In this document: positions 5,841 to 43,206 of the stretch, in pieces
Position numbering within the stretch: the first letter of the stretch is position 1
Layout: every line of letters starts with the position of its first letter
Sequence record: OK018184
From: Shigella phage CT01
Length of the DNA stretch: 64,000 nucleotides
Direction: 5' to 3' (one strand)
Notes under the pieces: generated by a model
Told to the model about the DNA's origin: nothing
Seen by the model: only the letters and a program-made list of their open reading frames with translations
Database searches by the model: none
Made by a program: the position numbers and the translations under genes

Positions 5841-6110
5841 TTATCTAAGTAAGCAGTATGCTTGGAATACTTTCTCCATCATCTTTTTAAATTCATGAAT
5901 ATCTATGTAATGACTAGTTAAATCAGCATGATATAAAAAGTCTAAAAACTTTTCATGTGTGCTAACATATTCGCTTTCATTTAATTCAGAAACATGGCTT
6001 TCCCAATATCCAACACCAGTCTTATTTGGGAAAAATGAAATTTTCATGTATTGGTCAACATAGAAAATTCCATAATTTTCAATAGTAATAGAAATATTAA
6101 TAAATTTCAT
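5841..6110 (-). CDS. hypothetical protein
   Basis: 89-aa ORF, last of three translationally coupled small ORFs. Confidence 0.45.
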   Translation of the reverse strand: MKFINISITIENYGIFYVDQYMKISFFPNKTGVGYWESHVSELNESEYVSTHEKFLDFLYHADLTSHYIDIHEFKKMMEKVFQAYCLLR

Positions 6111-6328
6111 GCATTCATCAACTTAGCCGCTTCAAGAGCTGCATCTAGTGAATCAAATTGATCGACATATTCAATCAGTTTGCCGTAATTAGCGTATAAC
6201 CACCATTGGCTAAATTCATACTCAAGGATGAATCCATTTCCTTCAATTTGAGTTAAACCAATGCCATTTGTATTTACTTCATATCCGGCAAGACGTAAAT
6301 CGTTAATAAGAGCTTCGTTCATATTCAT
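6107..6328 (-). CDS. hypothetical protein
   Basis: 73-aa ORF with 4-nt overlaps to both neighbours. Confidence 0.45.
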   Translation of the reverse strand: MNMNEALINDLRLAGYEVNTNGIGLTQIEGNGFILEYEFSQWWLYANYGKLIEYVDQFDSLDAALEAAKLMNA

Positions 6329-6651
6329 ACCTTAGCAATTTTCAGGTCAGCAAATTTTTTCTTGCGTTGATTTTTCATACGACGAATAGTTTTATCGGAA
6401 ATTTCATGTTTTTGATAAGCTTTAGATTCTACACCAAAAGCTTTAACATCAAATTCTGACAAGATATATTGAACCAACAATTCACGGACAGTATTTCGTC
6501 CAATCTTCTGATCATTCTGTTTCATCATCTGATGAAGCTCTTTTTCCCATTTATCCAAAATTTGAGGAGTTACAATATCGCCTTTTTCTAGCAAAGAAAC
6601 TACTTTATCATATGCGTAAGAATTGATGGCGTTTTTAATTTGAATAGTCAT
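6325..6651 (-). CDS. hypothetical protein
   Basis: 108-aa ORF with a basic C-terminus. Confidence 0.5.
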   Translation of the reverse strand: MTIQIKNAINSYAYDKVVSLLEKGDIVTPQILDKWEKELHQMMKQNDQKIGRNTVRELLVQYILSEFDVKAFGVESKAYQKHEISDKTIRRMKNQRKKKFADLKIAKV

Positions 6652-6685
6652 ACATTATCCTCAATTACATTAAAATTTTATTATC

Positions 6686-6706
6686 CAAAAAGGGCCGAAG
6701 CCCTTA
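6686..6706 (-). terminator. hairpin terminator
   Basis: AAGGGC-CGAA-GCCCTT stem-loop followed on the minus strand by UUUUGG and an AU-rich run. Confidence 0.55.
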
Positions 6707-6904
6707 GCTAAACTTTTTGGCACCCTTCCAGCCTTCGTACATCATTGCGGCTGATATTAATATTGCCCCTGAACAGCTTGAATATTTGTGATTCCAAAAC
6801 CAGTTCAGAAAAACTTCGTCATCAATACCTTGAGCTATCATATTTTCAAAGAACTGGCGACGAGCTTCAGCAATTCGTTGCGATAATTTAGATTCAGGAT
6901 TCAT
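6704..6904 (-). CDS. hypothetical protein
   Basis: 66-aa track ORF. Confidence 0.4.
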   Translation of the reverse strand: MNPESKLSQRIAEARRQFFENMIAQGIDDEVFLNWFWNHKYSSCSGAILISAAMMYEGWKGAKKFS

Positions 6905-7036
6905 TTAAATTTTCCAGTTACCGTTTTCATCAATGAATTTAATCCAGTCATTTACTGACCACTTGGTCGTATCGCCTTTTGGAGCAACATTTAAAGTGTA
7001 TAATCCTTGTTTAAAAAGCATGCGTTTGATATTCAT
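6905..7036 (-). CDS. small hypothetical protein (43 aa)
   Basis: ATG at 7036 preceded by GAGGAAAA; the track ORF 6905..7120 is a TTG-extended version. Confidence 0.35.
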   Translation of the reverse strand: MNIKRMLFKQGLYTLNVAPKGDTTKWSVNDWIKFIDENGNWKI

Positions 7037-7043
7037 ATTTTCC

Positions 7044-7337
7044 TCAGCTGTAACGATAGCACTCGTTTGATTTACGCTTAGCAACTCGTTGAGAAGTATT
7101 ATAATCAAAATCATCGTCAATGTAAACTGATTTTTTCAACTTTCTTACTTCACTACGCAATTGACGATTTAGCTCATCTTTAACTTCTGAATCAATGCCT
7201 TTCATTCTACGCCATTTATCAGAGCGAAAAATGTTTTCAACCATATCTTTATGACTTACACCATCAGGAGCTTTACGCTTTCCGAAATAGTCATAATCAC
7301 GTACTTTTAAATCTTTACGACGATACGTTTTACCCAT
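7044..7337 (-). CDS. hypothetical basic protein
   Basis: ATG at 7337 preceded by AAGGAA; lysine/arginine-rich product; the track ORF extends to a GTG at 7382. Confidence 0.4.
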   Translation of the reverse strand: MGKTYRRKDLKVRDYDYFGKRKAPDGVSHKDMVENIFRSDKWRRMKGIDSEVKDELNRQLRSEVRKLKKSVYIDDDFDYNTSQRVAKRKSNECYRYS

Positions 7338-7534
7338 GGAGTTTAATTTCCTTAGCAACTGAACTAAATACAGCACGGTCACAAATCATGTGTTTGTTCC
7401 ATTTAAGTACAGTATAATGAACATCTAGATCATCTACTGCTGTAACAATAACAATATGTCCGTTAACACGATAATACTGATCCCTTTTAATCTCTTTATC
7501 AACCATATCAAATCCTCAAAGGCAATTCATATGT

Positions 7535-7568
7535 TAATAATACCACAGTTTGAACTTCTTGTAAACAA
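7535..7568 (-). promoter_or_regulatory. T4 early-type promoter candidate
   Basis: Minus strand reads GTTTAC, an 18-nt spacer, then TATTAT. Confidence 0.4.
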
Positions 7569-7640
7569 CTTTGTGAAAATTATTTTAGGGAATGATAAGA
7601 AGCGAATGATAGTTAGAATGGTAATATACAGAATGTGAGA

Positions 7641-7664
7641 AAGAAAGGCCCAGAGGGCCCGTCT
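7641..7664 (-). terminator. hairpin terminator downstream of nrdH
   Basis: GGCCC/GGGCC stem-loop followed on the minus strand by a U-rich tract. Confidence 0.45.
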
Positions 7665-7987
7665 TAGTCTTCTATGATATCTCTATCATATCCAAGTGAA
7701 ATGAGAGTTTCTTTGAAGTGTTTAATGTTCTTTTGTCTAGAATCATTGATGAAAATGACTGGATAACGAATGTTAAGAGATGTAAATCCAGCGCGTTTAG
7801 CAAGAGATACAATCAGTGGACGATCATACTCAATCTTACCATTATTTGTAAGAACTTTATAGAAAGTAAAAGGAGCATTGAGCTCCTTTAGAAGTTTTGT
7901 AACTGATTGACATCCAGGACAACGACCTACTTCTTCGGGGATGCCATAGATTTCAATCTTATTCTTTAAGTTCGAGTTTTGTTCCAC
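7664..7987 (-). CDS. nrdH: glutaredoxin-like protein NrdH
   Basis: 107 aa with a CPGC redox motif; sits upstream of nrdG and nrdD. Confidence 0.6.
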   Translation of the reverse strand: MEQNSNLKNKIEIYGIPEEVGRCPGCQSVTKLLKELNAPFTFYKVLTNNGKIEYDRPLIVSLAKRAGFTSLNIRYPVIFINDSRQKNIKHFKETLISLGYDRDIIED

Positions 7988-8246
7988 GAGAAATAATTCC
8001 TTGATAAGCCCAGTATGGCGGGTTAACAGAATTCAGTTTGTTAGTAATTTTATCCAGACGCTCATTGAATTCGCTAGAAGATAAGCCTTTTTCTGGAGAA
8101 ATTAAGCTAATCACGAAAAATATAGCAATAAAAGGAATAAGGAAAATAGCTCCAACTGCCATAAACAAAAAGAACGTTACAGTTGTAAGAAAATCAGCTA
8201 AACCTTTACGAAATTTATACATATTTACCCTTAATTGATTAACCAA
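7959..8246 (-). CDS. hypothetical membrane protein
   Basis: 95 aa with a hydrophobic segment FLTTVTFFLFMAVGAIFLIPFIAIFFVISLI. Confidence 0.4.
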   Translation of the reverse strand: MVNQLRVNMYKFRKGLADFLTTVTFFLFMAVGAIFLIPFIAIFFVISLISPEKGLSSSEFNERLDKITNKLNSVNPPYWAYQGIISRGTKLELKE

Positions 8247-8336
8247 GCATTGATAAGTACTAAACTATACTGCGAATAAAATTCTGGACCAAAATGAAAA
8301 ATCATATCATTTATAGTATCAATAATATAATTCAAT

Positions 8337-8807
8337 TTAATCATGTTTCCACACCCCATCGGTATTTGACCAAAGTCGCTGATTATCTGAACCTCGCCAC
8401 AGCTTTTTGGTCGGAAGATTTTTCTCATACTTCCCATCAATAATAACATCAACATATTTAAGCATTTCTAGTTGTTTAATATCTTCAAACTTGTATCCTG
8501 TCCACAACCAAATGCTTTTATTGGGATAAAGATTTTTTACTGTTTGAACGATGCAATGAATAACATCTCGGTTATCAGGATAGAGAGGGTCTCCTCCAGT
8601 TATAGTTAATCCTTCTATATAATCATTATTCAAACATTCAATTAATTGCTCTAGTGTTTCACCGGTGAATGGAACGCCATTTCTAGCATTCCATGTTGAT
8701 TTATTATAACATCCTTCACATTTATGCAAACACCCCGTAACGAAAAGAACGACCCTGCATCCAGGGCCATTCACAAAATCACAGGGATAAAATCTATCGT
8801 AATTCAT
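8337..8807 (-). CDS. nrdG: anaerobic ribonucleotide reductase activating protein (radical SAM)
   Basis: 156 aa with the radical-SAM cysteine triad CLHKCEGC; 4-nt overlap with the nrdD stop. Confidence 0.85.
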   Translation of the reverse strand: MNYDRFYPCDFVNGPGCRVVLFVTGCLHKCEGCYNKSTWNARNGVPFTGETLEQLIECLNNDYIEGLTITGGDPLYPDNRDVIHCIVQTVKNLYPNKSIWLWTGYKFEDIKQLEMLKYVDVIIDGKYEKNLPTKKLWRGSDNQRLWSNTDGVWKHD

Positions 8808-10621
8808 TGGTGTTTAACCCTATGCATGATTTCTTTATTTTTGCCGAGATTAAATCCGCGTTCATTCGGATTTCCCAAATAACCACAAGTTCTTCTTATT
8901 GTGTTCATCTTTTTAGGATCAGTTTCTCCACAAATAGAACAAACAAATCCGTTTTCAGTAGGAGTCATTTCATGGGTACTTCCACACGTAAAACATTTAT
9001 CTACTGGCATGTTAACACCAAAATAATCTAAATGTTGTGCAGCATAATCCCATACAGCCTCAAGACCTTTTAGGTTATTTTTCATATCAGGAAGTTCAAC
9101 ATAAGAAATGTGACCGCCTGTCGCAATGAAATGATATGGGGCTTCGCGAGAAATCTTTTCAAACGGAGTAATATTTTCTTCTACTGAAACGTGGAAACTG
9201 TTAGTGTACCAGCCTTTATCAGTAACATCCTTTACACTTCCATATTTTTCGGTATCGAGTTTACAGAAGCGATAACACAGGTTTTCAGCAGGTGTAGAAT
9301 ACAAGCTAAAAGCAAAACCAGTTCTTTCAGTCCACTGCTTAAGATGTGCATTCATTTTAGTTAAAATTTCCTGTCCAATATCACGACCGACAAGAATATT
9401 CAATTCGTGAATACCAATGTATCCTAGGGATACTGAACTTCTACCGTTTTTAAATAACTCAATTATATCATCATCGGGTTTAAGACGAACCCCGAATGCA
9501 CCTTCTTGGTAAAGAATAGGAGCAACAGTAGCTTTAACTCCTTTTAATGAACTAATTCTACACATCAATGCTTCAAAACACAAATCCATTCGTTCATTGA
9601 ACAATTCGGCAAATTTCTGTTCATTGAACTGTGTTCCAATATAAGAATCTAATGCAATACGAGGAAGATTCAGTGTTACAACGCCAAGATTATTACGTCC
9701 ATCAAGAATTTCATTACCAGTCGAATCTTTCCATACACTTAAGAAACTGCGGCAACCCATTGGAGAAACAGGAACAGATGAACCGGTGATAGCTTTATTG
9801 TTCTTAGCCGAAATGATGTCAGGATACATTCTTTTACTTGCACACTCTAGAGCAAGCTGCTTAATATCATAGTTCGGATCGTCTTTATAAAGATTAACAC
9901 CTTCTTCAACGAACATAACAAGTTTAGGAAAAATAGGAGTTATCCCATCGCGGCCAAGACCTTTAATGCGATTTTTCAGAATTGCTTTCTGAATCATTCG
10001 TTCAGTCCAGTCAGTTCCCGTACCAAATGTAATTGTTACAAAAGGAGTTTGTCCGTTTGAACTAAAGAGAGTATTTACTTCATATTCATAAGCTTGGAAT
10101 GCATCGTATACGTCTTTTTCTGTTTTAGATTGGGCATAATTCAACGCGTCAGCGATTTGCCATTTTTCTGCGTCCTCAATATGTTTTGCATAGGTGCGTT
10201 TAACATAAGGAGAAAGTACTTTATCTACATTCGCAAAAGTCGTTCCGCCATATTGATGAGAAGCAACCTGCGCAGTAATTTGTGCCATAATTGCAGTAGC
10301 AACACCGATTGATTTAGGAGTTTCAATCTGTGCATTACCGAGCTTAAATCCATTCTCAAGCATTCCTTTTAAATCTACTAAACAGCAATTAGTAAATGGA
10401 AGAGCAGGGGAATAATCAATATCATGGAAATGGATAATTCCGCTTTCATGCGCTTTCATAATAAAAGACGGGACCATATTTTTGGCAATGTGTTTAGACA
10501 CAATACCAGCCATAAGGTCCCGTTGAGTTGGAAAAACACGAGAATCTTTATTAGCATTCTCGTTTAAAAGGTCTTTATTAGTTTTATGAATTAATCCTTC
10601 AATTTCTTTTTCAATCGTCAT
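8804..10621 (-). CDS. nrdD: anaerobic ribonucleoside-triphosphate reductase
   Basis: 605 aa with the C-terminal glycyl-radical motif RRTCGY and a C-terminal zinc ribbon; one continuous ORF. Confidence 0.9.
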   Translation of the reverse strand: MTIEKEIEGLIHKTNKDLLNENANKDSRVFPTQRDLMAGIVSKHIAKNMVPSFIMKAHESGIIHFHDIDYSPALPFTNCCLVDLKGMLENGFKLGNAQIETPKSIGVATAIMAQITAQVASHQYGGTTFANVDKVLSPYVKRTYAKHIEDAEKWQIADALNYAQSKTEKDVYDAFQAYEYEVNTLFSSNGQTPFVTITFGTGTDWTERMIQKAILKNRIKGLGRDGITPIFPKLVMFVEEGVNLYKDDPNYDIKQLALECASKRMYPDIISAKNNKAITGSSVPVSPMGCRSFLSVWKDSTGNEILDGRNNLGVVTLNLPRIALDSYIGTQFNEQKFAELFNERMDLCFEALMCRISSLKGVKATVAPILYQEGAFGVRLKPDDDIIELFKNGRSSVSLGYIGIHELNILVGRDIGQEILTKMNAHLKQWTERTGFAFSLYSTPAENLCYRFCKLDTEKYGSVKDVTDKGWYTNSFHVSVEENITPFEKISREAPYHFIATGGHISYVELPDMKNNLKGLEAVWDYAAQHLDYFGVNMPVDKCFTCGSTHEMTPTENGFVCSICGETDPKKMNTIRRTCGYLGNPNERGFNLGKNKEIMHRVKHQ

Positions 10622-11091
10622 TTTAAACTCTTTCTAAGCTGCTTCTTAAATGAAGCTATTAATTGTGTTTTAGTGTCAGATTCATTATATTCAAATCCTC
10701 TTTGAAGCATCTCAGCCATCATTTCCTCTTTTCCTAAACGAGAAAATTCCTTTGATTTATCTCCAACGAAGTTAGGGTGAATATTATTTTGGGTGTAATC
10801 GGATTTTAAATAAGTAAGTAAATTTTCTAACCATTCAAGATAATCAACACCTTGTCCCTTTAAGCCAGAACGATTAAATTTATGTTTCATTTGACCTTCT
10901 GCAGCATTGCAGAGATTACATAGCAACCCACGTACCTTTCCTGCTTTTGGTCCATTTAATTCATGGTCATGGTCAAGGTGATTAGCTTGAACATCAGGAT
11001 TTAGTTCTCGTTGGCAAATTAAGCATTTACCGTTTTGTGCATTATAAAATTTTTGTTTTTCTTCTTTGTACAATTTGCCAGTCAATAACAT
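10618..11091 (-). CDS. 49: endonuclease VII (Holliday-junction resolvase)
   Basis: 157 aa with zinc-binding CLICQ and CNLCN pairs; matches T4 gp49 as recalled. Confidence 0.8.
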   Translation of the reverse strand: MLLTGKLYKEEKQKFYNAQNGKCLICQRELNPDVQANHLDHDHELNGPKAGKVRGLLCNLCNAAEGQMKHKFNRSGLKGQGVDYLEWLENLLTYLKSDYTQNNIHPNFVGDKSKEFSRLGKEEMMAEMLQRGFEYNESDTKTQLIASFKKQLRKSLK

Positions 11092-11356
11092 AATAAACCC
11101 TTACCTTAAATAGATAAGGGTATTTATTATTTTCAAGTATTAAAATGCTCGTTCAGAAAAAGAAATTTGAGTTTCAAGAAGTTCTCGTTGGCAAATTAAG
11201 CATTTACCGTTTTGTGCATTATAAAATTTTTGTTTTTCTTCTTTGTACAATTTGCCAGTCAATAACATAATAAACCCTTACCTTAAATAGATAAGGGTAT
11301 TTATTATTTTCAAGTATTAAAATGCTCGTTCAGAAAAAGAAATTTGAGTTTCAAGC
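11003..11356. repeat. perfect tandem duplication, two units of 177 bp
   Basis: 11003-11178 is identical to 11180-11355; the unit holds the last codons of the upstream ORF, the intergenic region and the first 29 codons of gene 49. Confidence 0.9.
11140..11268 (-). pseudogene. duplication-derived chimeric ORF (gene 49 codons 1-29 fused to the last 13 codons of the upstream gene)
   Basis: Hand translation across the junction gives MLLTGKLYKEEKQKFYNAQNGKCLICQRELLETQISFSERAF. Confidence 0.4.
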
Positions 11357-11781
11357 CATTCAATATATTCTGCTGCAGCTTGCATCAAATTTCCTTCATA
11401 GCCATCGTTATTTTCTTGTGCAGCTAATTTAGCTAATGCATATGAAATACGTTCACCCTGAAAAGCGGCTTTAGGTTTATGAATAGCTTGATCAACTCGT
11501 TCTACAACTTCTTCAATTTCGCCATTTTCTACTGATTCAGTATTCCACAAGCACCAATACGTAATTGGCTTATCATAGATGTTAATAACCTTTCCGTCAG
11601 AAAGTTCAATTTCAATAATTCCAGTATCAGGTTCTATATCATCTTCACATTCTTTTGCAAGTTCACGAACTTTAAAGACAGTACCTGCACTAAGTTCCGG
11701 CCAGTAATTACACAACCCTTTATCAGCACGATTAATTCTAAACCACTTATCTACTGTAATCATGTCCCATCTCCATATCAA
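11317..11781 (-). CDS. hypothetical protein (by position possibly the pin protease-inhibitor homolog)
   Basis: 154-aa ORF directly upstream of gene 49; assignment is by synteny only. Confidence 0.4.
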   Translation of the reverse strand: MIWRWDMITVDKWFRINRADKGLCNYWPELSAGTVFKVRELAKECEDDIEPDTGIIEIELSDGKVINIYDKPITYWCLWNTESVENGEIEEVVERVDQAIHKPKAAFQGERISYALAKLAAQENNDGYEGNLMQAAAEYIEWLETQISFSERAF

Positions 11782-11886
11782 TTATGTCATTTATTGTAGG
11801 TTCATTATATACTGTTTCTTCATCAGTGTAAACCGGTTCTTCCGGCTCTGGCTCTACTGTTTCCCATCTAGCCGCCCACCAAGGTT

Positions 11887-12207
11887 TTATAGCGTAATCC
11901 ATTCTCGTATTGTCTGAGTTACTACACGTTCACGGGGCTCGACTAGTTCAACAGTCGGAACTGCATAATACCAGTCAGAATGGTAAGAACCTGAGCGAGA
12001 TTCATTTACAGACACATGTACATTATGTTTTGGACTAAAATAAACACACTGACGATATTGACATTTGCCATCTTGCACCCAGTCTTCTATTTCGACAGGT
12101 TTAAGATAATCCGAAAAATCGAAATCATAGTTTTCTGAAAATGCATCATGGTCTTCGATGATTTCGCTCAGAACTGCATCAACATCTAATTTATTTTCAA
12201 TAGTCAT
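11887..12207 (-). CDS. hypothetical protein
   Basis: 106-aa acidic ORF. Confidence 0.45.
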   Translation of the reverse strand: MTIENKLDVDAVLSEIIEDHDAFSENYDFDFSDYLKPVEIEDWVQDGKCQYRQCVYFSPKHNVHVSVNESRSGSYHSDWYYAVPTVELVEPRERVVTQTIREWITL

Positions 12208-12217
12208 TTGTCACCAC

Positions 12218-12427
12218 TTAATTTCGCAATTTATTAAGTTCTTCATAATCAATCCAGGATTCTAATCCTGATGGCAAATCAGATTCAATTTCCCAAAGAA
12301 GCTCTTCAATTTTCTGAAGACGATCTAATTCTTCAGCTGGAATAGTAACCATTGACGGAGTTCTTGATACACTAATATCGTAAATCATATTTACCCCAGT
12401 TTGACCATACAATCGCCGTATTTCCAT
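12218..12427 (-). CDS. hypothetical protein
   Basis: 69-aa ORF. Confidence 0.4.
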   Translation of the reverse strand: MEIRRLYGQTGVNMIYDISVSRTPSMVTIPAEELDRLQKIEELLWEIESDLPSGLESWIDYEELNKLRN

Positions 12428-12606
12428 TTAGAAATAGACTTTTCACCATTAGAATAATAAACTTCTAGTTTAGCGCGGCCATTTTTAATTTGAATAACCT
12501 TTGCTGTCATTAAAGTTCCATACCCATAATAAACTGCAACCTCATCCCCCACATATACCGCGCTTCCGCGGTAGTCATGGATATAATCAGTTCCTTCAAG
12601 CATCAT
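12391..12606 (-). CDS. hypothetical protein
   Basis: 71-aa ORF overlapping the nrdC stop by 4 nt. Confidence 0.4.
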   Translation of the reverse strand: MMLEGTDYIHDYRGSAVYVGDEVAVYYGYGTLMTAKVIQIKNGRAKLEVYYSNGEKSISKWKYGDCMVKLG

Positions 12607-12866
12607 TTAAAGTATTCCCGCAATTGGTCAAATCCACCAATATGACTTCCATCAGGAGCAAATACCTGAGGCATCGTCAATCCGATTTGAGTATCACGAC
12701 CTAGTTTAGTCAGAAGCTCAGCAATTTTCTCATCATCAAAAACACCTTTTTCCGGCATAATATTGATAAATTCAAACGGCTGTTTCTTCACAGTCAAAAG
12801 ACGTTTTGCATTATCGCAATACACACATTTATGGATGTTGCTATCATAACCATATACTTTAAACAT
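12603..12866 (-). CDS. nrdC: glutaredoxin/thioredoxin NrdC
   Basis: 87 aa with a CVYC active-site motif; matches T4 NrdC as recalled. Confidence 0.75.
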   Translation of the reverse strand: MFKVYGYDSNIHKCVYCDNAKRLLTVKKQPFEFINIMPEKGVFDDEKIAELLTKLGRDTQIGLTMPQVFAPDGSHIGGFDQLREYFK

Positions 12867-12867
12867 A

Positions 12868-13110
12868 TTATTCCTTAATTCCTAGTACTTGTTTAAAAGT
12901 CTCGTCGTAATCAAGACTTTGACCTGTTTGTTCTTTATGTTTGTATATAATATCACTTACTTCTGATAGCATATTTTTATATGAACGAGTTAAAGCAGAT
13001 TTAAGCACACTATATCTATCAGGAAATTTACCATGTTCATTATAATAAGCTATTGCTAATTCACGGACTGCCTTTTCAGCAGTCTCCATATATTCTTTAC
13101 GCTTTGTCAT
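12868..13110 (-). CDS. hypothetical protein
   Basis: 80-aa ORF. Confidence 0.45.
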
Positions 13111-13414
13111 TTTCTTCTCGGTTAAATCGGTGTTTACAATGACGACATTTATAACGAAGAATACTAGTTTGCCAATGAATCAATTGAACCTGTTCAGTAC
13201 CACATTTTGGGCAGTTCGGAACATTCTTAGAAGCCCTTTCGCGGCGTTCAACCATAACCATAATGGCATCCCAAGCAGGAGGTTTAAAGTCTAGATCGTC
13301 ATCGCCATGAATCTTTCCACGCATTTCTAGATCGTCTTCTTCACCAGCCATAATAATTTTAATTAGACTGGAATTACTTGAAGCTGCAATATCTTCTAAT
13401 AAGCGCTTTTTCAT
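13097..13414 (-). CDS. zinc-ribbon protein
   Basis: 105 aa with CPKCG...CRHCKH cysteine pairs. Confidence 0.5.
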
Positions 13415-14340
13415 TTCAGTACCTCAATAGCATCACGTAAACCATTTGCTTTTGCATTAAGAGCTTTTAACAATTTGGTATGTTCGGCAATCTGAGCTTC
13501 AACTTCAATCAAACGAGCATTGAGATATTCACGTTCTTCGCTCAGGTTATCAACCTTTTCTACTTTAGATTCTTTTACAACTGGCTTATATGTATTAGGG
13601 TTCTTCAGTTTAATTAGAATGCGTGAACTGTATAACATTGAACCATTATCTTCGGTTTCATCATACATTTCCACTACGTCCATCATCTCCACCATCGTGC
13701 AGAGTTTATAAGACAGCGAACGAATAGTTTTGTTATGCTTATTAATTTCTCTAGCTGTCATGGTGCCGAGATTACGTGAGTAATAATAAGGAACCTGGAT
13801 ATTAATTAATACTGATGAACCACCTGGCTTGTGTGTTACTTCATCAGCAATAACCCAATCCTTAACATGAACTGTATTTGTACGGTCATCGCCTGCGGTA
13901 AATAGTTTGCGAGCATGCTTAAAAAGCATATTCACTTGGTCATTGAATTGACAAGCAAATTTATCAGCAAATTTAGTTTCAGGAATGGTAGATAACCAAT
14001 CAGCCAAATGGGTCTTTTTAACATCGTTAACAATAGTAAATTCAACCAAATCAGTTATAGATGTCTCAGATTTAATAAAGCTCGGCTTCATAAAGTTTTT
14101 AATGTTATCACGAGCTATCACAGAAGATAGTAATCGGGAACGTTTGAACCACTCTAGCAAAGAACCAAGAGAATGTGAATACGCATTTTGTGTATCTTTA
14201 CAAATATGGTTTTCCCATCCAATATAGTCTAAAAAATCACGAAGAATATTATTGATTACTGCTCTATGTCCTATCTGATAATTACGATGTTTAGTAATAA
14301 GACTATCAAAATAATCAATATAATGTTTACGAGTTTTCAT
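13411..14340 (-). CDS. hypothetical protein, member 1 of a four-gene paralog array
   Basis: 309 aa; N-terminal motif RSRLLSSVIARDNIKNF; C-terminal heptad-like coiled coil. Confidence 0.55.
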   Translation of the reverse strand: MKTRKHYIDYFDSLITKHRNYQIGHRAVINNILRDFLDYIGWENHICKDTQNAYSHSLGSLLEWFKRSRLLSSVIARDNIKNFMKPSFIKSETSITDLVEFTIVNDVKKTHLADWLSTIPETKFADKFACQFNDQVNMLFKHARKLFTAGDDRTNTVHVKDWVIADEVTHKPGGSSVLINIQVPYYYSRNLGTMTAREINKHNKTIRSLSYKLCTMVEMMDVVEMYDETEDNGSMLYSSRILIKLKNPNTYKPVVKESKVEKVDNLSEEREYLNARLIEVEAQIAEHTKLLKALNAKANGLRDAIEVLK

Positions 14341-18377: not shown

Positions 18378-18402
18378 TTTCTGTTCCTCCGTAGTTGATA
18401 GT

Positions 18403-18437
18403 TGTATAGTACCATAGAGGAACAGTCTTGTAAACCA
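18403..18437 (-). promoter_or_regulatory. T4 early-type promoter
   Basis: Minus strand reads GTTTAC, an 18-nt spacer, then TGGTACTAT. Confidence 0.45.
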
Positions 18438-18752
18438 CTAAAAGAAACTTCTTTCACAATTTTTTCCACTGAACCATGCGCTCACTGCTTTCTTAGTCTC
18501 AGGAGCAGTGTTATCCATAAACCATTCAAAGGCAGCCTTTTTATGATTCTGGAGGGCTTCTCGGGCTTTAATCTGCTCACGGTCTATTAACACTAACATA
18601 TGAGCCTTTCTTGTCACCATGGGCTTCTTATGATTTTTTGAATACTCCCAGTCATTTGTCCATCGCATTGTCGTTGCGAACTTAAATACTGCTTCTTTAA
18701 TTTTAGTTTCGTAAATTTCACGAGCCTTTGAGTATAACATCATTACCTCCAT
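18438..18752 (-). CDS. hypothetical protein
   Basis: 104-aa ORF. Confidence 0.45.
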   Translation of the reverse strand: MEVMMLYSKAREIYETKIKEAVFKFATTMRWTNDWEYSKNHKKPMVTRKAHMLVLIDREQIKAREALQNHKKAAFEWFMDNTAPETKKAVSAWFSGKNCERSFF

Positions 18753-19810: not shown

Positions 19811-19844
19811 TTTATTCTCCAATTTTACATTTGTTTTGATAGGG

Positions 19845-19878
19845 TAATAGTATCACACTACTACCCTGCTGTAAACAA
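19845..19878 (-). promoter_or_regulatory. T4 early-type promoter
   Basis: Minus strand reads GTTTAC, an 18-nt spacer, then TGATACTAT. Confidence 0.45.
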
Positions 19879-19879
19879 T

Positions 19880-20143
19880 TTATTTTAATGTTTGCCAAAT
19901 TTTTACTGCTTCGCGACGAGATACTTCTACGGCGCCAAGTTCTATAGCTTTTTGGCGTCGCCGAGCGTGTAAGTCATAATGTTTAATGCGTTTATCTTGA
20001 AACCAAGAACGTTTCATTCCTATTGCTTCTGCCATTTCATGAAGCTCTTCAATATCTCCATCAGTGAACATATGACAATTTTTAGTTGGATGACCGCGAA
20101 GTTTCCATCCATGATTCATTAAAACATCTACGTAAACTGTCAT
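19880..20143 (-). CDS. hypothetical protein (87 aa)
   Basis: ORF MTVYVDVLMNHGWKLRGHPTKNCHMFTDGDIEELHEMAEAIGMKRSWF...; its start region is tandemly duplicated. Confidence 0.5.
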   Translation of the reverse strand: MTVYVDVLMNHGWKLRGHPTKNCHMFTDGDIEELHEMAEAIGMKRSWFQDKRIKHYDLHARRRQKAIELGAVEVSRREAVKIWQTLK

Positions 20144-20306
20144 TGATTCTTCTCCAAATACATTCCTATTGCTTCTGCCATTTCATGAAGCTCTTCAATA
20201 TCTCCATCAGTGAACATATGACAATTTTTAGTTGGATGACCGCGAAGTTTCCATCCATGATTCATTAAAACATCTACGTAAACTGTCATTGATTCTTCTC
20301 CAAATA
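20015..20306. repeat. perfect tandem duplication, two units of 146 bp
   Basis: 20015-20160 is identical to 20161-20306; the unit holds the RBS and first 43 codons of the 87-aa gene plus the last 17 nt of the upstream gene. Confidence 0.9.
20140..20289 (-). pseudogene. duplication-derived truncated copy of the 87-aa gene (43 codons plus YLEKNQ)
   Basis: Second ATG at 20289 with the same RBS; the frame ends at a TGA overlapping the intact gene's ATG. Confidence 0.4.
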
Positions 20307-20435: not shown

Positions 20436-20471
20436 TTTGTTTTTCCGTTTAAGTGTTTGTTTTGATAGTTG

Positions 20472-20504
20472 TATAGTACCATAAAGCTTTATGCTTGTAA
20501 ACAA
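20472..20504 (-). promoter_or_regulatory. T4 early-type promoter
   Basis: Minus strand reads GTTTAC, a 17-nt spacer, then TGGTACTAT. Confidence 0.45.
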
Positions 20505-20526
20505 TTTTGTGAAAAATTTTTGAAAT

Positions 20527-35777: not shown

Positions 35778-35819
35778 TTCATTCTCCAAGTTGTTTTTCT
35801 GTATCAGTAGTTGATAGTT

Positions 35820-35852
35820 GTATAGTACCATGGAAGAACGGGGATGTAAACC
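35820..35852 (-). promoter_or_regulatory. T4 early-type promoter
   Basis: Minus strand reads GTTTAC, a 17-nt spacer, then TGGTACTAT. Confidence 0.45.
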
Positions 35853-35984
35853 GTTTTGTGAAAAAATTTTTAAAAAGTTTTAGGGAATTCTAGGGCAGGG
35901 ATGGGCAATTAAAAGGTAGGATAATATATTATAAAGGGTATAAACTAAATGATGCCTAGAGAGGTCTGGAAAGGCCTAGATACC

Positions 35985-37452: not shown

Positions 37453-37539
37453 TGGTGGGGAGTGGTGGAGTCGAACCACCCGAGTCGCAATGACAATGGA
37501 TTTACAGTCCACACCGCTACCTCTACGGGATAACTCCCC
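37453..37539 (-). tRNA. tRNA-Tyr (anticodon GTA), class II
   Basis: Acceptor GGGGAGT/ACTCCCC, anticodon loop CTGTAAA, long variable arm, T-loop TTCGACT, encoded CCA. Confidence 0.8.
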
Positions 37540-37548
37540 AAATTAATT

Positions 37549-37623
37549 TGGTGGCCCTGGGTGGAATTGAACCACCATCTGGCGATTATGAGTCGCTTGC
37601 TTGAACCTTCCAGCTACAGGGCC
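37549..37623 (-). tRNA. tRNA with CAT anticodon (Ile if lysidine-modified, otherwise Met)
   Basis: Acceptor GGCCCTG/CAGGGCC, anticodon loop CTCATAA, encoded CCA; at the position of T4 tRNA-Ile. Confidence 0.75.
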
Positions 37624-37624
37624 T

Positions 37625-37700
37625 TGGTGCTGATTGACGGAATCGAACCGCCGACCTTCTCATTACAAGTGAGTTGCTCTACCTACTGAGCTAAATCAGC
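37625..37700 (-). tRNA. tRNA-Thr (anticodon TGT)
   Basis: Acceptor GCTGATT/AATCAGC, anticodon loop CTTGTAA, T-loop TTCGATT, encoded CCA. Confidence 0.85.
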
Positions 37701-37705
37701 AAAAC

Positions 37706-37795
37706 TGGCGGAGGCGATAGGATTTGAACCTATGAGTCGCCGGAGCGACTGCCGGTTTTCAAGACCGGTGCATTAAACCACTCTGCCACGCCTCC
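37706..37795 (-). tRNA. tRNA-Ser (anticodon TGA), class II
   Basis: Acceptor GGAGGCG/CGCCTCC, anticodon loop CTTGAAA, long variable arm, encoded CCA. Confidence 0.85.
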
Positions 37796-37797
37796 AG

Positions 37798-37871
37798 TCT
37801 CCATACAAGGATTTGAACCTTGGACCTCCTGATCCCAAATCAGGCGCTCTACCAAACTGAGCTACACGGAG
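37798..37871 (-). tRNA. tRNA-Pro (anticodon TGG), CCA not encoded
   Basis: Acceptor CTCCGTG/TATGGAG, anticodon loop TTTGGGA, T-loop TTCAAAT; abuts tRNA-Ser with a 2-nt spacer. Confidence 0.8.
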
Positions 37872-37881
37872 TAAATTAAAT

Positions 37882-37955
<74 letters not shown>

Positions 37956-37960
37956 AAATT

Positions 37961-38047
37961 TGGTGCGAGAAGTGGGACTCGAACCCACAAGGAAATCATT
38001 CCGCAGCATTTTAAGTGCTGTGCCTTTACCAATTTGACCATTCTCGC
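37961..38047 (-). tRNA. tRNA-Leu (anticodon TAA), class II
   Basis: Acceptor GCGAGAA/TTCTCGC, anticodon loop CTTAAAA, long variable arm, encoded CCA. Confidence 0.85.
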
Positions 38048-38048
38048 G

Positions 38049-38115
38049 CTGGGAATAAAGGACTCGAACCTTTGCATCCTGGAATCAAAATCCAGTGCCT
38101 TACCAATAACTCCCC
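38049..38115 (-). pseudogene. chimeric tRNA remnant: 3' 58 nt of tRNA-Gln joined to the first 10 nt of tRNA-Tyr
   Basis: Identical to the intact tRNA-Gln at 38625-38697 over its 3' part, but the 5' acceptor and D-arm are replaced by GGGGAGTTAT at the duplication junction. Confidence 0.7.
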
Positions 38116-38124
38116 AAATTAATT

Positions 38125-38199
38125 TGGTGGCCCTGGGTGGAATTGAACCACCATCTGGCGATTATGAGTCGCTTGCTTGAACCTTCCAGCTACAGGGCC
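38125..38199 (-). tRNA. tRNA with CAT anticodon, duplicate copy
   Basis: Identical to 37549-37623, shifted by 576 bp. Confidence 0.75.
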
Positions 38200-38200
38200 T

Positions 38201-38276
38201 TGGTGCTGATTGACGGAATCGAACCGCCGACCTTCTCATTACAAGTGAGTTGCTCTACCTACTGAGCTAAATCAGC
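38201..38276 (-). tRNA. tRNA-Thr (TGT), duplicate copy
   Basis: Identical to 37625-37700, shifted by 576 bp. Confidence 0.85.
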
Positions 38277-38281
38277 AAAAC

Positions 38282-38371
38282 TGGCGGAGGCGATAGGATT
38301 TGAACCTATGAGTCGCCGGAGCGACTGCCGGTTTTCAAGACCGGTGCATTAAACCACTCTGCCACGCCTCC
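38282..38371 (-). tRNA. tRNA-Ser (TGA), duplicate copy
   Basis: Identical to 37706-37795, shifted by 576 bp. Confidence 0.85.
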
Positions 38372-38373
38372 AG

Positions 38374-38447
38374 TCTCCATACAAGGATTTGAACCTTGGA
38401 CCTCCTGATCCCAAATCAGGCGCTCTACCAAACTGAGCTACACGGAG
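38374..38447 (-). tRNA. tRNA-Pro (TGG), duplicate copy
   Basis: Identical to 37798-37871, shifted by 576 bp. Confidence 0.8.
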
Positions 38448-38457
38448 TAAATTAAAT

Positions 38458-38531
<74 letters not shown>

Positions 38532-38536
38532 AAATT

Positions 38537-38623
38537 TGGTGCGAGAAGTGGGACTCGAACCCACAAGGAAATCATTCCGCAGCATTTTAAGTGCTGTGCC
38601 TTTACCAATTTGACCATTCTCGC
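38537..38623 (-). tRNA. tRNA-Leu (TAA), duplicate copy
   Basis: Identical to 37961-38047, shifted by 576 bp. Confidence 0.85.
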
Positions 38624-38624
38624 G

Positions 38625-38697
38625 CTGGGAATAAAGGACTCGAACCTTTGCATCCTGGAATCAAAATCCAGTGCCTTACCAACTTGGCTAATTCCCA
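38625..38697 (-). tRNA. tRNA-Gln (anticodon TTG), intact copy, CCA not encoded
   Basis: Acceptor TGGGAAT/ATTCCCA, anticodon loop TTTTGAT, T-loop TTCGAGT; abuts tRNA-Leu with a 1-nt spacer. Confidence 0.8.
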
Positions 38698-39675: not shown

Positions 39676-39701
39676 TTTATTCTCCTCAGTAGTTGATAGG
39701 G

Positions 39702-39735
39702 TAATAGTATCACAACTAAAACCCTATGTAAACAA
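39702..39735 (-). promoter_or_regulatory. T4 early-type promoter
   Basis: Minus strand reads GTTTAC, an 18-nt spacer, then TGATACTAT. Confidence 0.45.
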
Positions 39736-39751
39736 CTTTGTGAAATATTTA

Positions 39752-40039
39752 TTACAAAAGATTTTTAGCAATAATCTTGAGATGTGCCGCAGAAATGTGT
39801 TTAGCTTTAAACAACGCAGTTTCTTCAGCAGGAGAGATAATGATTGTAGCACCATCCTTTTTAGCAGACCACCCATCACCTAGGTAAACAGTACCTTTGA
39901 TTTCTTCGCCATCAACCAAACTAATCATTGGTTTACCTTCTCGTCCTTTATTTGCTTTAATAACTTCAGAAGTAAGAGTAGCTTCAGTAATAGTAGAAAC
40001 CGGGGTAGTTGTAGAAGTAAATTCTTTGAAAGTTTTCAT
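39752..40039 (-). CDS. ipI: internal protein I-like protein
   Basis: 95 aa beginning MKTFKEF with a leader ending ITE-A; sits directly upstream of 57B as ipI does in T4. Confidence 0.55.
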   Translation of the reverse strand: MKTFKEFTSTTTPVSTITEATLTSEVIKANKGREGKPMISLVDGEEIKGTVYLGDGWSAKKDGATIIISPAEETALFKAKHISAAHLKIIAKNLL

Positions 40040-40067
40040 TTTATTTTCCTAATTAATTTTGATGAGA

Positions 40068-40101
40068 TAATAGTATCACTACCTCATCAACGTGTAAACA
40101 A
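40068..40101 (-). promoter_or_regulatory. T4 early-type promoter upstream of the ipI-like gene
   Basis: Minus strand reads GTTTAC, an 18-nt spacer, then TGATACTAT. Confidence 0.45.
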
Positions 40102-40111
40102 CTTTGTGAAA

Positions 40112-40808
<697 letters not shown>

Positions 40809-42208: not shown

Positions 42209-42382
42209 TTAATTTATTAGACTTCTTAAACGAGCAGAAGTCATAAATGGAAATTTTTCTAAAGTTGGCTTTCGCCAATATCTTGGATGACAAGTTGATT
42301 TAAAATCAAGAACAATTTTCTTTGCTTCATCAATAGTGCTAACCCTATCAATTAGTGAATTATAAATTTTTTCATAATTCAT
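42209..42382 (-). CDS. small hypothetical protein
   Basis: 57 codons from an ATG at 42382 that overlaps the gp2 stop (ATGA). Confidence 0.3.
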
Positions 42383-43206
42383 CGTACATTGCTCCAAACT
42401 TTGTTTGCAGAGAAACGTTTTCCTTTGGAGTAGAAGCTTTGGAGTGGCATTAACACAACGTTCGCCCAGTCTTTCGGGGCGATTTCAACAAGGCTACCCA
42501 TAATATTACCGGGTATATATGCCTTAATCATTTGGTCTGCACCCCTAAATCCTTTCACTTGACTCCAATCAATTTTTAATTTCGTTTTATTAGTAATAGT
42601 AGGTGTATTTGAATATTGCTTTAAAAGCTCTTCTAGAAATTGCTGACGAGCTTTAGGTGGAATATAGTGCAAGTTCAATCCGTACATTAAATTATGTTTA
42701 CCTAAACCAAGGTAAATTATCAAAGGAAATTTATCCCAATAAGGAAGAGTTTCTTTGTGTTTAGCGTCGTAAGCAAAAGCATATATTCGTCCCGGCTGCG
42801 GGCGAACAACTTTATGTCCTTTTACCTGTTTAATAGTTTCAGCAAACCACTTTCTGGTTTTATTATTAATTGCTGCGCCTTCATTACGAATTTTATCACG
42901 CAATGTTTGTCTGAATGAATTTATCATAAGCAGTTGTCTTTCTTGCTTATTGAGTTTATTCATTGGTTTTGATTCAAGCTTTTGAATCTTTTCAGCTGTT
43001 TTAATTCCTGAAGCATATTTTGACATTGCCGAAGTAAACGTAGAATATTTAATTCCTTTTTCTTCAGCAAATTGCTTTCCTGTCATTCCTTTTGCTTTGG
43101 CCTTTTTGTATTCAAGACCTATCTGAATCCATTTCTTTTCGTTTAATGATTGCTTAACCTTTGGAACTTGGGGAGTGCTTTCATTAATTATTTGAAAAAT
43201 AGCCAT
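42379..43206 (-). CDS. 2: gp2 DNA end protector
   Basis: 275-aa basic protein between genes 4 and 3 as in T4. Confidence 0.7.

Follow-up and report, generated by a model that had tools for sequence, protein, structure and literature searches.

The perfect tandem repeat that spans the start of gene 49, which encodes recombination endonuclease VII, in the sequence of Shigella phage CT01 (record OK018184) is private to this one sequence, is neither a conserved nor a designed element, and is probably an artefact of assembly or joining that most likely does not exist in the phage DNA. We infer this technical origin from the form of the junction, from comparison of the window (the whole 64,000-nucleotide stretch analysed here) with its relatives, and from the presence within it of two further duplications of the same kind. 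The principal competing explanation involves a genuine duplication of very recent date, whose merits are weighed below. The element that appears twice is in itself an already known T4-type control module.

The window is composed of Tequatrovirus (T4-like) DNA, about 96-98% identical to that of many Escherichia and Shigella phages. Two genes, both intact and both on the minus strand, frame the repeat. Gene 49 (10618-11091) encodes a protein of 157 aa that carries the Pfam families PF02945 and PF09124 and is identical at 156 of 157 positions to the crystallised T4 endonuclease VII (PDB 1E7D/1EN7). The upstream gene (11317-11763; 148 aa; PF10465, E 1.6e-48) is pin, the product of which, PinA, inhibits the host Lon protease, and which is so annotated in relatives. 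Tandem Repeats Finder reports an array at 11003-11355 with a period of 177, 2.0 copies, 100% matches and a score of 706, while a repeat finder delimits identical 176-nt copies at 11003-11178 and 11180-11355, and base-by-base comparison gives a run of identity at period 177 of exactly 176 nt. The base that separates the copies, at position 11179, is an A on the plus strand (T on the minus strand) and is supplied by neither native flank, the left native base (11002) being T and the right native base (11356) being C. The original prediction had described perfect 177-bp units with no spacer; the duplication itself is confirmed, and its true form is that of 176 nt plus one foreign base or, equivalently, of 177-nt units that are identical at 176 of 177 positions. 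Native minus-strand flanks in the relatives read GAATGG/CTTGAA and GAGAACT/AAATCC (breakpoints marked by a slash), and the junction reads ...TTTCAAG-A-AGTTCTCG..., also written ...GAGTTTCAAG-A-AGTTCTCGTTGG....

The content of the unit had been correctly described as the end of the upstream ORF, followed by the leader and by codons 1-29 of gene 49. Read on the minus strand, each unit contains 12 sense codons of pin with the stop codon (39 nt), a leader of 48 nt, and a stretch of 89 nt from gene 49 that comprises 29 codons and 2 further nt, which add up to the 176 nt of the copy. Copy B (11003-11178) adjoins the intact gene 49, whose true 5' end it contains after a copy of the pin tail and the leader; copy A (11180-11355) adjoins the intact pin, of which it contains the true 3' end, followed by the leader and by codons 1-29 of gene 49. 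No 30-mer recurs in the 64 kb outside the three duplications (this repeat and the two others), and a chance origin of the repeat is ruled out. Short ATTT[G]AGTT-like motifs are found near both ends, but the breakpoints fall outside them, and a microhomology-mediated origin was rejected; a direct repeat of 2-10 bp with one copy retained, the form of a microhomology-type junction, is not found at the gene 49 repeat.

The period of 177 is divisible by 3 and pin is read in the same frame as gene 49, so that the chimera to which copy A gives rise terminates at the pin stop codon. This is the 42-codon ORF announced in the original prediction (MLLTG...QRELLETQISFSERAF; 11140-11268, minus strand), in which gp49 residues 1-29 are followed by a junction Leu codon and by the last 12 residues of pin; the gene identities given there, and the doubling of the leader and initiation region of gene 49, check out as well. 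The product matches PF02945 weakly and over residues 9-31 only. It contains neither the catalytic residues nor the dimerisation domain of endonuclease VII; of the four Zn ligands of the enzyme it retains the first two cysteines, Cys23 and Cys26, and lacks the other two.

Comparison with relatives that lack the repeat had been put forward as a check, and it returns a single copy throughout. With a 1601-nt query, all of the best hits in 735 phage records extend over 1424-1425 nt and are thus 177 nt shorter, and a 121-nt query centred on the junction finds no one-piece alignment in 731 phage records, its two halves hitting opposite ends of a single unit. Furthermore, the exact junction was not found in IMG/VR, GTDB genomes, JGI metagenomes or complete E. 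coli genomes, and the 42-aa chimeric product has no exact-product match among 153 billion gene positions. Ten contigs with identical gp49, as well as T4 itself, carry the unit once each. A particularly close comparison is provided by the Logan contig SRR12802600_1194 (hereafter L084), which is 99.9-100% identical to the window over positions 6070-13800 and which contains the identical unit once, with native flanks and with the rare TTG variant in codon 7 included. The presence of a single copy in so near a relative indicates that the duplication is younger than essentially all point divergence.

The repeat does not stand by itself within the window. A second perfect tandem duplication, at 20015-20306 (146 x 2; 2.0 copies; junction homology 0), has a unit that comprises the last 6 codons of a 49-aa gene, the ATGA in which its stop codon overlaps the next start codon, and codons 1-43 of a DUF4031 gene; it generates a 49-aa chimeric ORF (20140-20289, minus strand) next to an intact DUF4031 copy (19880-20143), and it is absent from all relatives examined, including contigs that are 100% identical on both sides. 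A third perfect tandem duplication, at 37530-38682 (576 x 2; 1 nt of junction homology), is located in the tRNA cluster, where it doubles six tRNA genes, namely tRNA-Met(CAT), Thr, Ser, Pro, Gly and Leu, and ends inside tRNA-Tyr and tRNA-Gln, leaving a non-tRNA chimera at the junction; it is likewise absent from all relatives examined. Hundreds of relatives lack both of these sister duplications, among them contigs that are 99.2-100% identical around them. The junction homologies of the three duplications (-1 nt at gene 49, 0 and 1 nt) are those that random breakpoints give, and over about 900 duplicated bases, the three duplications taken together, the copies show zero divergence.

A measure of how unusual this accumulation is was obtained from a baseline of 67 T4-like loci, amounting to 1.31 Mb, scanned for comparable tandem duplications. 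The baseline yields one duplication per 1.31 Mb, versus three per 64 kb here, or about 60 times the density; about 0.05 duplications would be expected in the window, and at least three would arise with a Poisson probability of about 2e-5. The single baseline case, found in locus L046 at 6301-6554 (IMG/VR UViG 2974737508), is a perfect 126-bp tandem duplication with 2-nt microhomology that spans the end of one gene and the start of the next.

The foreign junction base, the restriction of the repeat to one sequence and its membership in a group of three duplications point to an origin that is either technical or very recent. In the technical case, overlapping pieces of sequence would have been joined end to end with their overlap left unmerged, the candidate steps being contig or scaffold joins, gap closing, and local re-assembly in the course of polishing, and the odd base at 11179 could represent a contig-end or gap-filling base. 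Several observations favour this explanation: the repeat is private, L084 carrying a single copy; three perfect private duplications occur in the window, as against one in 1.31 Mb; the copies are without divergence; the junctions are devoid of homology, whereas the deletions of the same window (see below) show 8 and 10 nt; the three lengths differ and none of them corresponds to a common k-mer size, as would be expected if overlaps had been left unmerged at several joins; and the stray base sits exactly at one join. What is found here, in short, is a set of identical copies at several sites, with flanks collinear with those of relatives and with near-identical genomes in which the duplications are absent. 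Unmerged joins of contig ends, which sometimes carry a 1-base placeholder, likewise present perfect copies, flanks that are contiguous in relatives, several lengths, no junction homology and an odd base; they differ from the present case in that the sites in the window fall outside gene interiors more often than would be expected of joins placed at random (p about 0.1). A switch of nearest relative at the junctions, which is a sign of chimeric joining, was not seen at the scale tested, the flanks being 99.9-100% identical to the same contig.

The main rival to an artefact holds that the repeat is a genuine, very recent tandem duplication that arose in vivo and is both neutral and unstable, and this is a realistic possibility, if one that stops short of being probable. 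Its route would involve homology-independent joining, such as topoisomerase-mediated illegitimate recombination or template switching in recombination-dependent replication, with the addition of one base; it would be neutral in that one intact copy of everything remains, and plaque purification would have captured it before the very active homologous recombination of T4 collapsed the repeat. The 1-nt filler, which was seen above as a possible contig-end base, is of a kind that classically accompanies illegitimate joining in vivo. All three duplications spare the interiors of genes, for which random placement gives a probability of about 0.35 x 0.40 x 0.76 = 0.11, and both protein-coding chimeras run in frame into the stop codon of the upstream gene, as would occur in about 1/9 of cases by chance; the combination of gene sparing and maintained frame is what selection on real mutants favours. 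In addition, T4 readily makes duplications and amplifications (PMC9391042), and the 126-bp case in L046 shows that such events, or such artefacts, do occur singly.

A further argument for a genuine event is that the same genome carries two bona fide private deletions at microhomologies, which makes a burst of rearrangements conceivable. The first, an in-frame deletion of 252 nt at 8025-8032 with an 8-nt microhomology (AACAGAAT), is seen by comparison with the 100% identical L084 and with phage P922, and fuses two small ORFs downstream of nrdG into a 95-aa ORF (7959-8246, minus strand). The second, an in-frame deletion of 486 nt (window 42212-42393; junction 42334-42343) with a 10-nt microhomology, has removed part of a homing-endonuclease gene (219 aa) located between genes 3 and 2, and leaves a remnant ORF of about 57 aa; relatives with identical gp2 keep the full homing-endonuclease gene. 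Look-ups of this remnant ORF and of a 337-aa start variant, both private features of the window, gave no match on record. These same deletions also tell against the genuine origin of the duplications, in that both exhibit microhomology of 2-10 bp while none of the three duplication junctions does.

Microhomology of 2-10 bp accompanies the rearrangements documented in T4, as in the amplification of tifA (Srikant et al. 2022, PMC9391042), and further T4 cases, those of Hp17 (Wu, Wu and Black 1991) and rII (Kumagai 1993), are cited in that article. The amplifications of this type share with the repeat at gene 49 a head-to-tail arrangement, one novel junction and intact flanking genes; in the latter, however, a foreign base takes the place of microhomology, there are two copies only, no complete gene is included, and no selective agent is evident. 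Moreover, a genuine origin requires three independent fixed events in 64 kb, against the one in 1.31 Mb of the baseline, and short reads seldom allow a perfect tandem repeat of 576 bp to be assembled without difficulty. On the classical T4 map scale, on which recombination amounts to about 0.01% per bp, a perfect 176-bp repeat should vanish at roughly a percent per infection cycle. If, all of this notwithstanding, the three duplications were real, the phage would belong to a T4-like lineage with an unusual homology-independent process, in which the doubled gene 49 module could be retained for the timing or amount of endonuclease VII or for the N-terminal peptide; we consider this very improbable.

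The module contained in the unit deserves description regardless of how it came to be doubled. From ATACTTGAAAAT through the ATG, the gene 49 leader is that of T4. It includes a late-promoter-like motif on the minus strand, AATAAATA (11121-11128 in copy B, 11298-11305 in copy A), which is the same as in T4 and matches the T4 late-promoter consensus (TATAAATA-type) at 7 of 8 positions, its last base being the first base of the stem of a hairpin that sequesters the ribosome-binding site (minus strand; 11090-11130 in copy B, with a 10-bp core at 11097-11121, and 11267-11307 in copy A). The two copies of the hairpin are identical. The predicted helix of 17 bp, core included (dG -16.3 kcal/mol; z -3.2), covers AAGGUAAGGG and the AU of the AUG, with the Shine-Dalgarno purines in its 3' arm, such that in the fold of the read-through RNA the ribosome-binding site and start codon are paired as in T4-type sequestering hairpins. 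An RNA that starts about 6 nt past AATAAATA, on the other hand, is unstructured in the predicted fold (-2 kcal/mol). The hairpin followed by its U-run scores as terminator-like in a scan, and the annotation of some relatives lists it as a terminator. An Rfam search of the region yielded chance-level hits only, with no family for the leader module.

Such an arrangement is well known. Gene 49, together with e, soc and I-TevI, belongs to the T4 late genes in which read-through RNA keeps the initiation region sequestered and RNA that starts at the late promoter leaves it free (PMC3014915; PMC2988022), and Barth et al. (1988, Genetics 120:329) is the source cited for the control of gene 49 in both reviews (PMC3014915, PMC2988022). 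By analogy with the role described in the T4 literature (PMC2988022, PMC3014915), AATAAATA may be considered a putative late promoter. The likeness to T4 gene 49 control thus extends to an identical leader in which the motif is followed by the hairpin that hides the Shine-Dalgarno sequence along with the first two bases of the AUG; the difference is that the whole module is doubled here, the upstream copy serving the 42-codon chimera, an arrangement that occurs in no relative.

The extent to which the module is conserved was assessed in 27 distinct leaders from 44 IMG/VR loci, in which gp49 identity ranges from 100% down to 50%. TAAATA is invariant in all 27 of these T4-like gene 49 leaders, and each of them possesses, in the same place, an 8-12 bp hairpin (folding energies between -8.5 and -13.9 kcal/mol) that begins at the last A of TAAATA or at most 2 bases from it. 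The stem pairs were taken from minimum-energy folds computed per sequence and anchored on TAAATA, and pairing thus holds by construction; the 27 leaders nonetheless use 14 different 5' arms, each with a 3' arm to match, and every one of stem pairs 2-6 occurs as 3-5 pair types, indicating that the structure is conserved through compensatory changes in the stem. Leader RNAs truncated at the 5' end (6 nt downstream) fold with -0.2 to -2.7 kcal/mol. An alignment of the 27 leaders by MAFFT followed by RNAalifold recovered 4 pairs only, as the 3' arms of differing stem types were misaligned, and was set aside. Judged from these leaders, the unit would appear to carry one complete, conserved regulatory module. 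As a by-product, the survey reveals that the promoter and hairpin arrangement of gene 49 is kept, with compensatory changes, where gp49 is only 50% identical.

It is this module that gives some substance to the suggestion that a genuine duplication has been kept by selection, be it that a second promoter and initiation region raises or re-times the output of gene 49, or that the 42-aa peptide or a doubled hairpin/terminator is functional. The unit does contain a complete and deeply conserved regulatory module, and its hairpin and U-run score as terminator-like and are so annotated in relatives. The suggestion is nevertheless highly unlikely. The arrangement is seen in none of about 730 other related genomes, nor in the 99.9% identical relative, and the sister duplications hit unrelated loci. 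The unit is made of gene fragments and a leader in 2.0 copies, and not of a complete, dosage-selected gene, which would usually exceed two copies in number. Any RNA initiated at the extra promoter would include the full downstream hairpin, and should not translate gene 49, and the peptide, with its weak PF02945 match, is without the catalytic residues, the other two Zn ligands and the dimerisation domain.

These considerations also bear on the claim that the duplication could alter the expression of gene 49, which finds little support in the architecture. Gene 49 and pin are both intact, and gene 49 retains at least 176 nt of native upstream sequence, with its own motif and hairpin; the native control region is complete, and the extra copy can drive only the 42-codon ORF. 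If the repeat were real, both hairpins would form in the early and middle RNA that reads through from upstream, and translation of the chimera and of gene 49 alike would be prevented, as in the wild type. Late RNA from the promoter of copy B would be native and would yield normal gp49. Late RNA from the promoter of copy A would free the initiation region of the 42-codon ORF only, leading to the 42-aa peptide, and, as it would carry the complete hairpin of copy B, it would behave like read-through RNA with regard to gene 49. The spacing between the chimera stop codon and this hairpin equals that between the pin stop codon and the hairpin in the wild type. The sole other plausible effect would be a weakening of read-through by the terminator-like hairpin and U-run. 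As a full-length gene 49 with its native control region is present, little change of expression is to be expected, be the repeat an artefact or a neutral duplication, and a regulatory effect on gene 49 is, judging by the sequence, unlikely. A real repeat would therefore amount to one more ordinary, transient tandem duplication of T4 type, with negligible effect on gene 49, of a module that has been understood since 1988.

Circularisation overlap, in which a circularly permuted genome yields a contig with identical ends and both ends are retained when the sequence is re-opened elsewhere, is a common source of exact direct repeats in phage assemblies, but it is scarcely credible here and is contradicted as the sole cause by three sites of differing length (146, 177 and 576, none of them a usual k-mer), given that it is possible only once per genome and that the gene 49 junction has an extra base.

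An origin in assembly or joining, the reading that we prefer for the gene 49 repeat, has implications for data quality as well, in that three private perfect duplications cast doubt on the extra ORFs (the 42-aa and 49-aa chimeras) and on the six extra tRNA genes of this record.

The vicinity of the repeat is variable among relatives in other respects. An additional 58-aa gene (PF23945, DUF7279) is located between pin and gene 49 in seven loci (L003, L004, L006, L009, L014, L086 and L091), and is absent from the window and from T4-like relatives such as sutha; its presence or absence among relatives marks the intergenic site between pin and gene 49 as a hot spot of insertion and deletion. The late-promoter/hairpin module is found, unaltered, downstream of this insert. 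The DUF7279 gene, itself 177 nt long, was rejected as a source of the repeat, given that the sequences are unrelated and the two arrangements differ by 169 nt, so that the equality of length is coincidental. On the other side of gene 49, nrdD (8804-10621, minus strand) is intron-less and uninterrupted and encodes 605 aa, and L004 and L011 have a SegE-like GIY-YIG insertion in this gene. The nrdD gene of T4 contains the I-TevII group I intron.

Finally, the window contains dispersed repeats of 62-78 nt that are 60-73% identical to one another, at 7526-7587, 18388-18465, 19836-19897, 20462-20523, 35804-35881, 39686-39763 and 40059-40120. They resemble T4 early-promoter regions on the minus strand (GTTTAC ... 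TATAC/TATTA), and a Logan contig of a near-identical phage stops at about the copy located at 19836.
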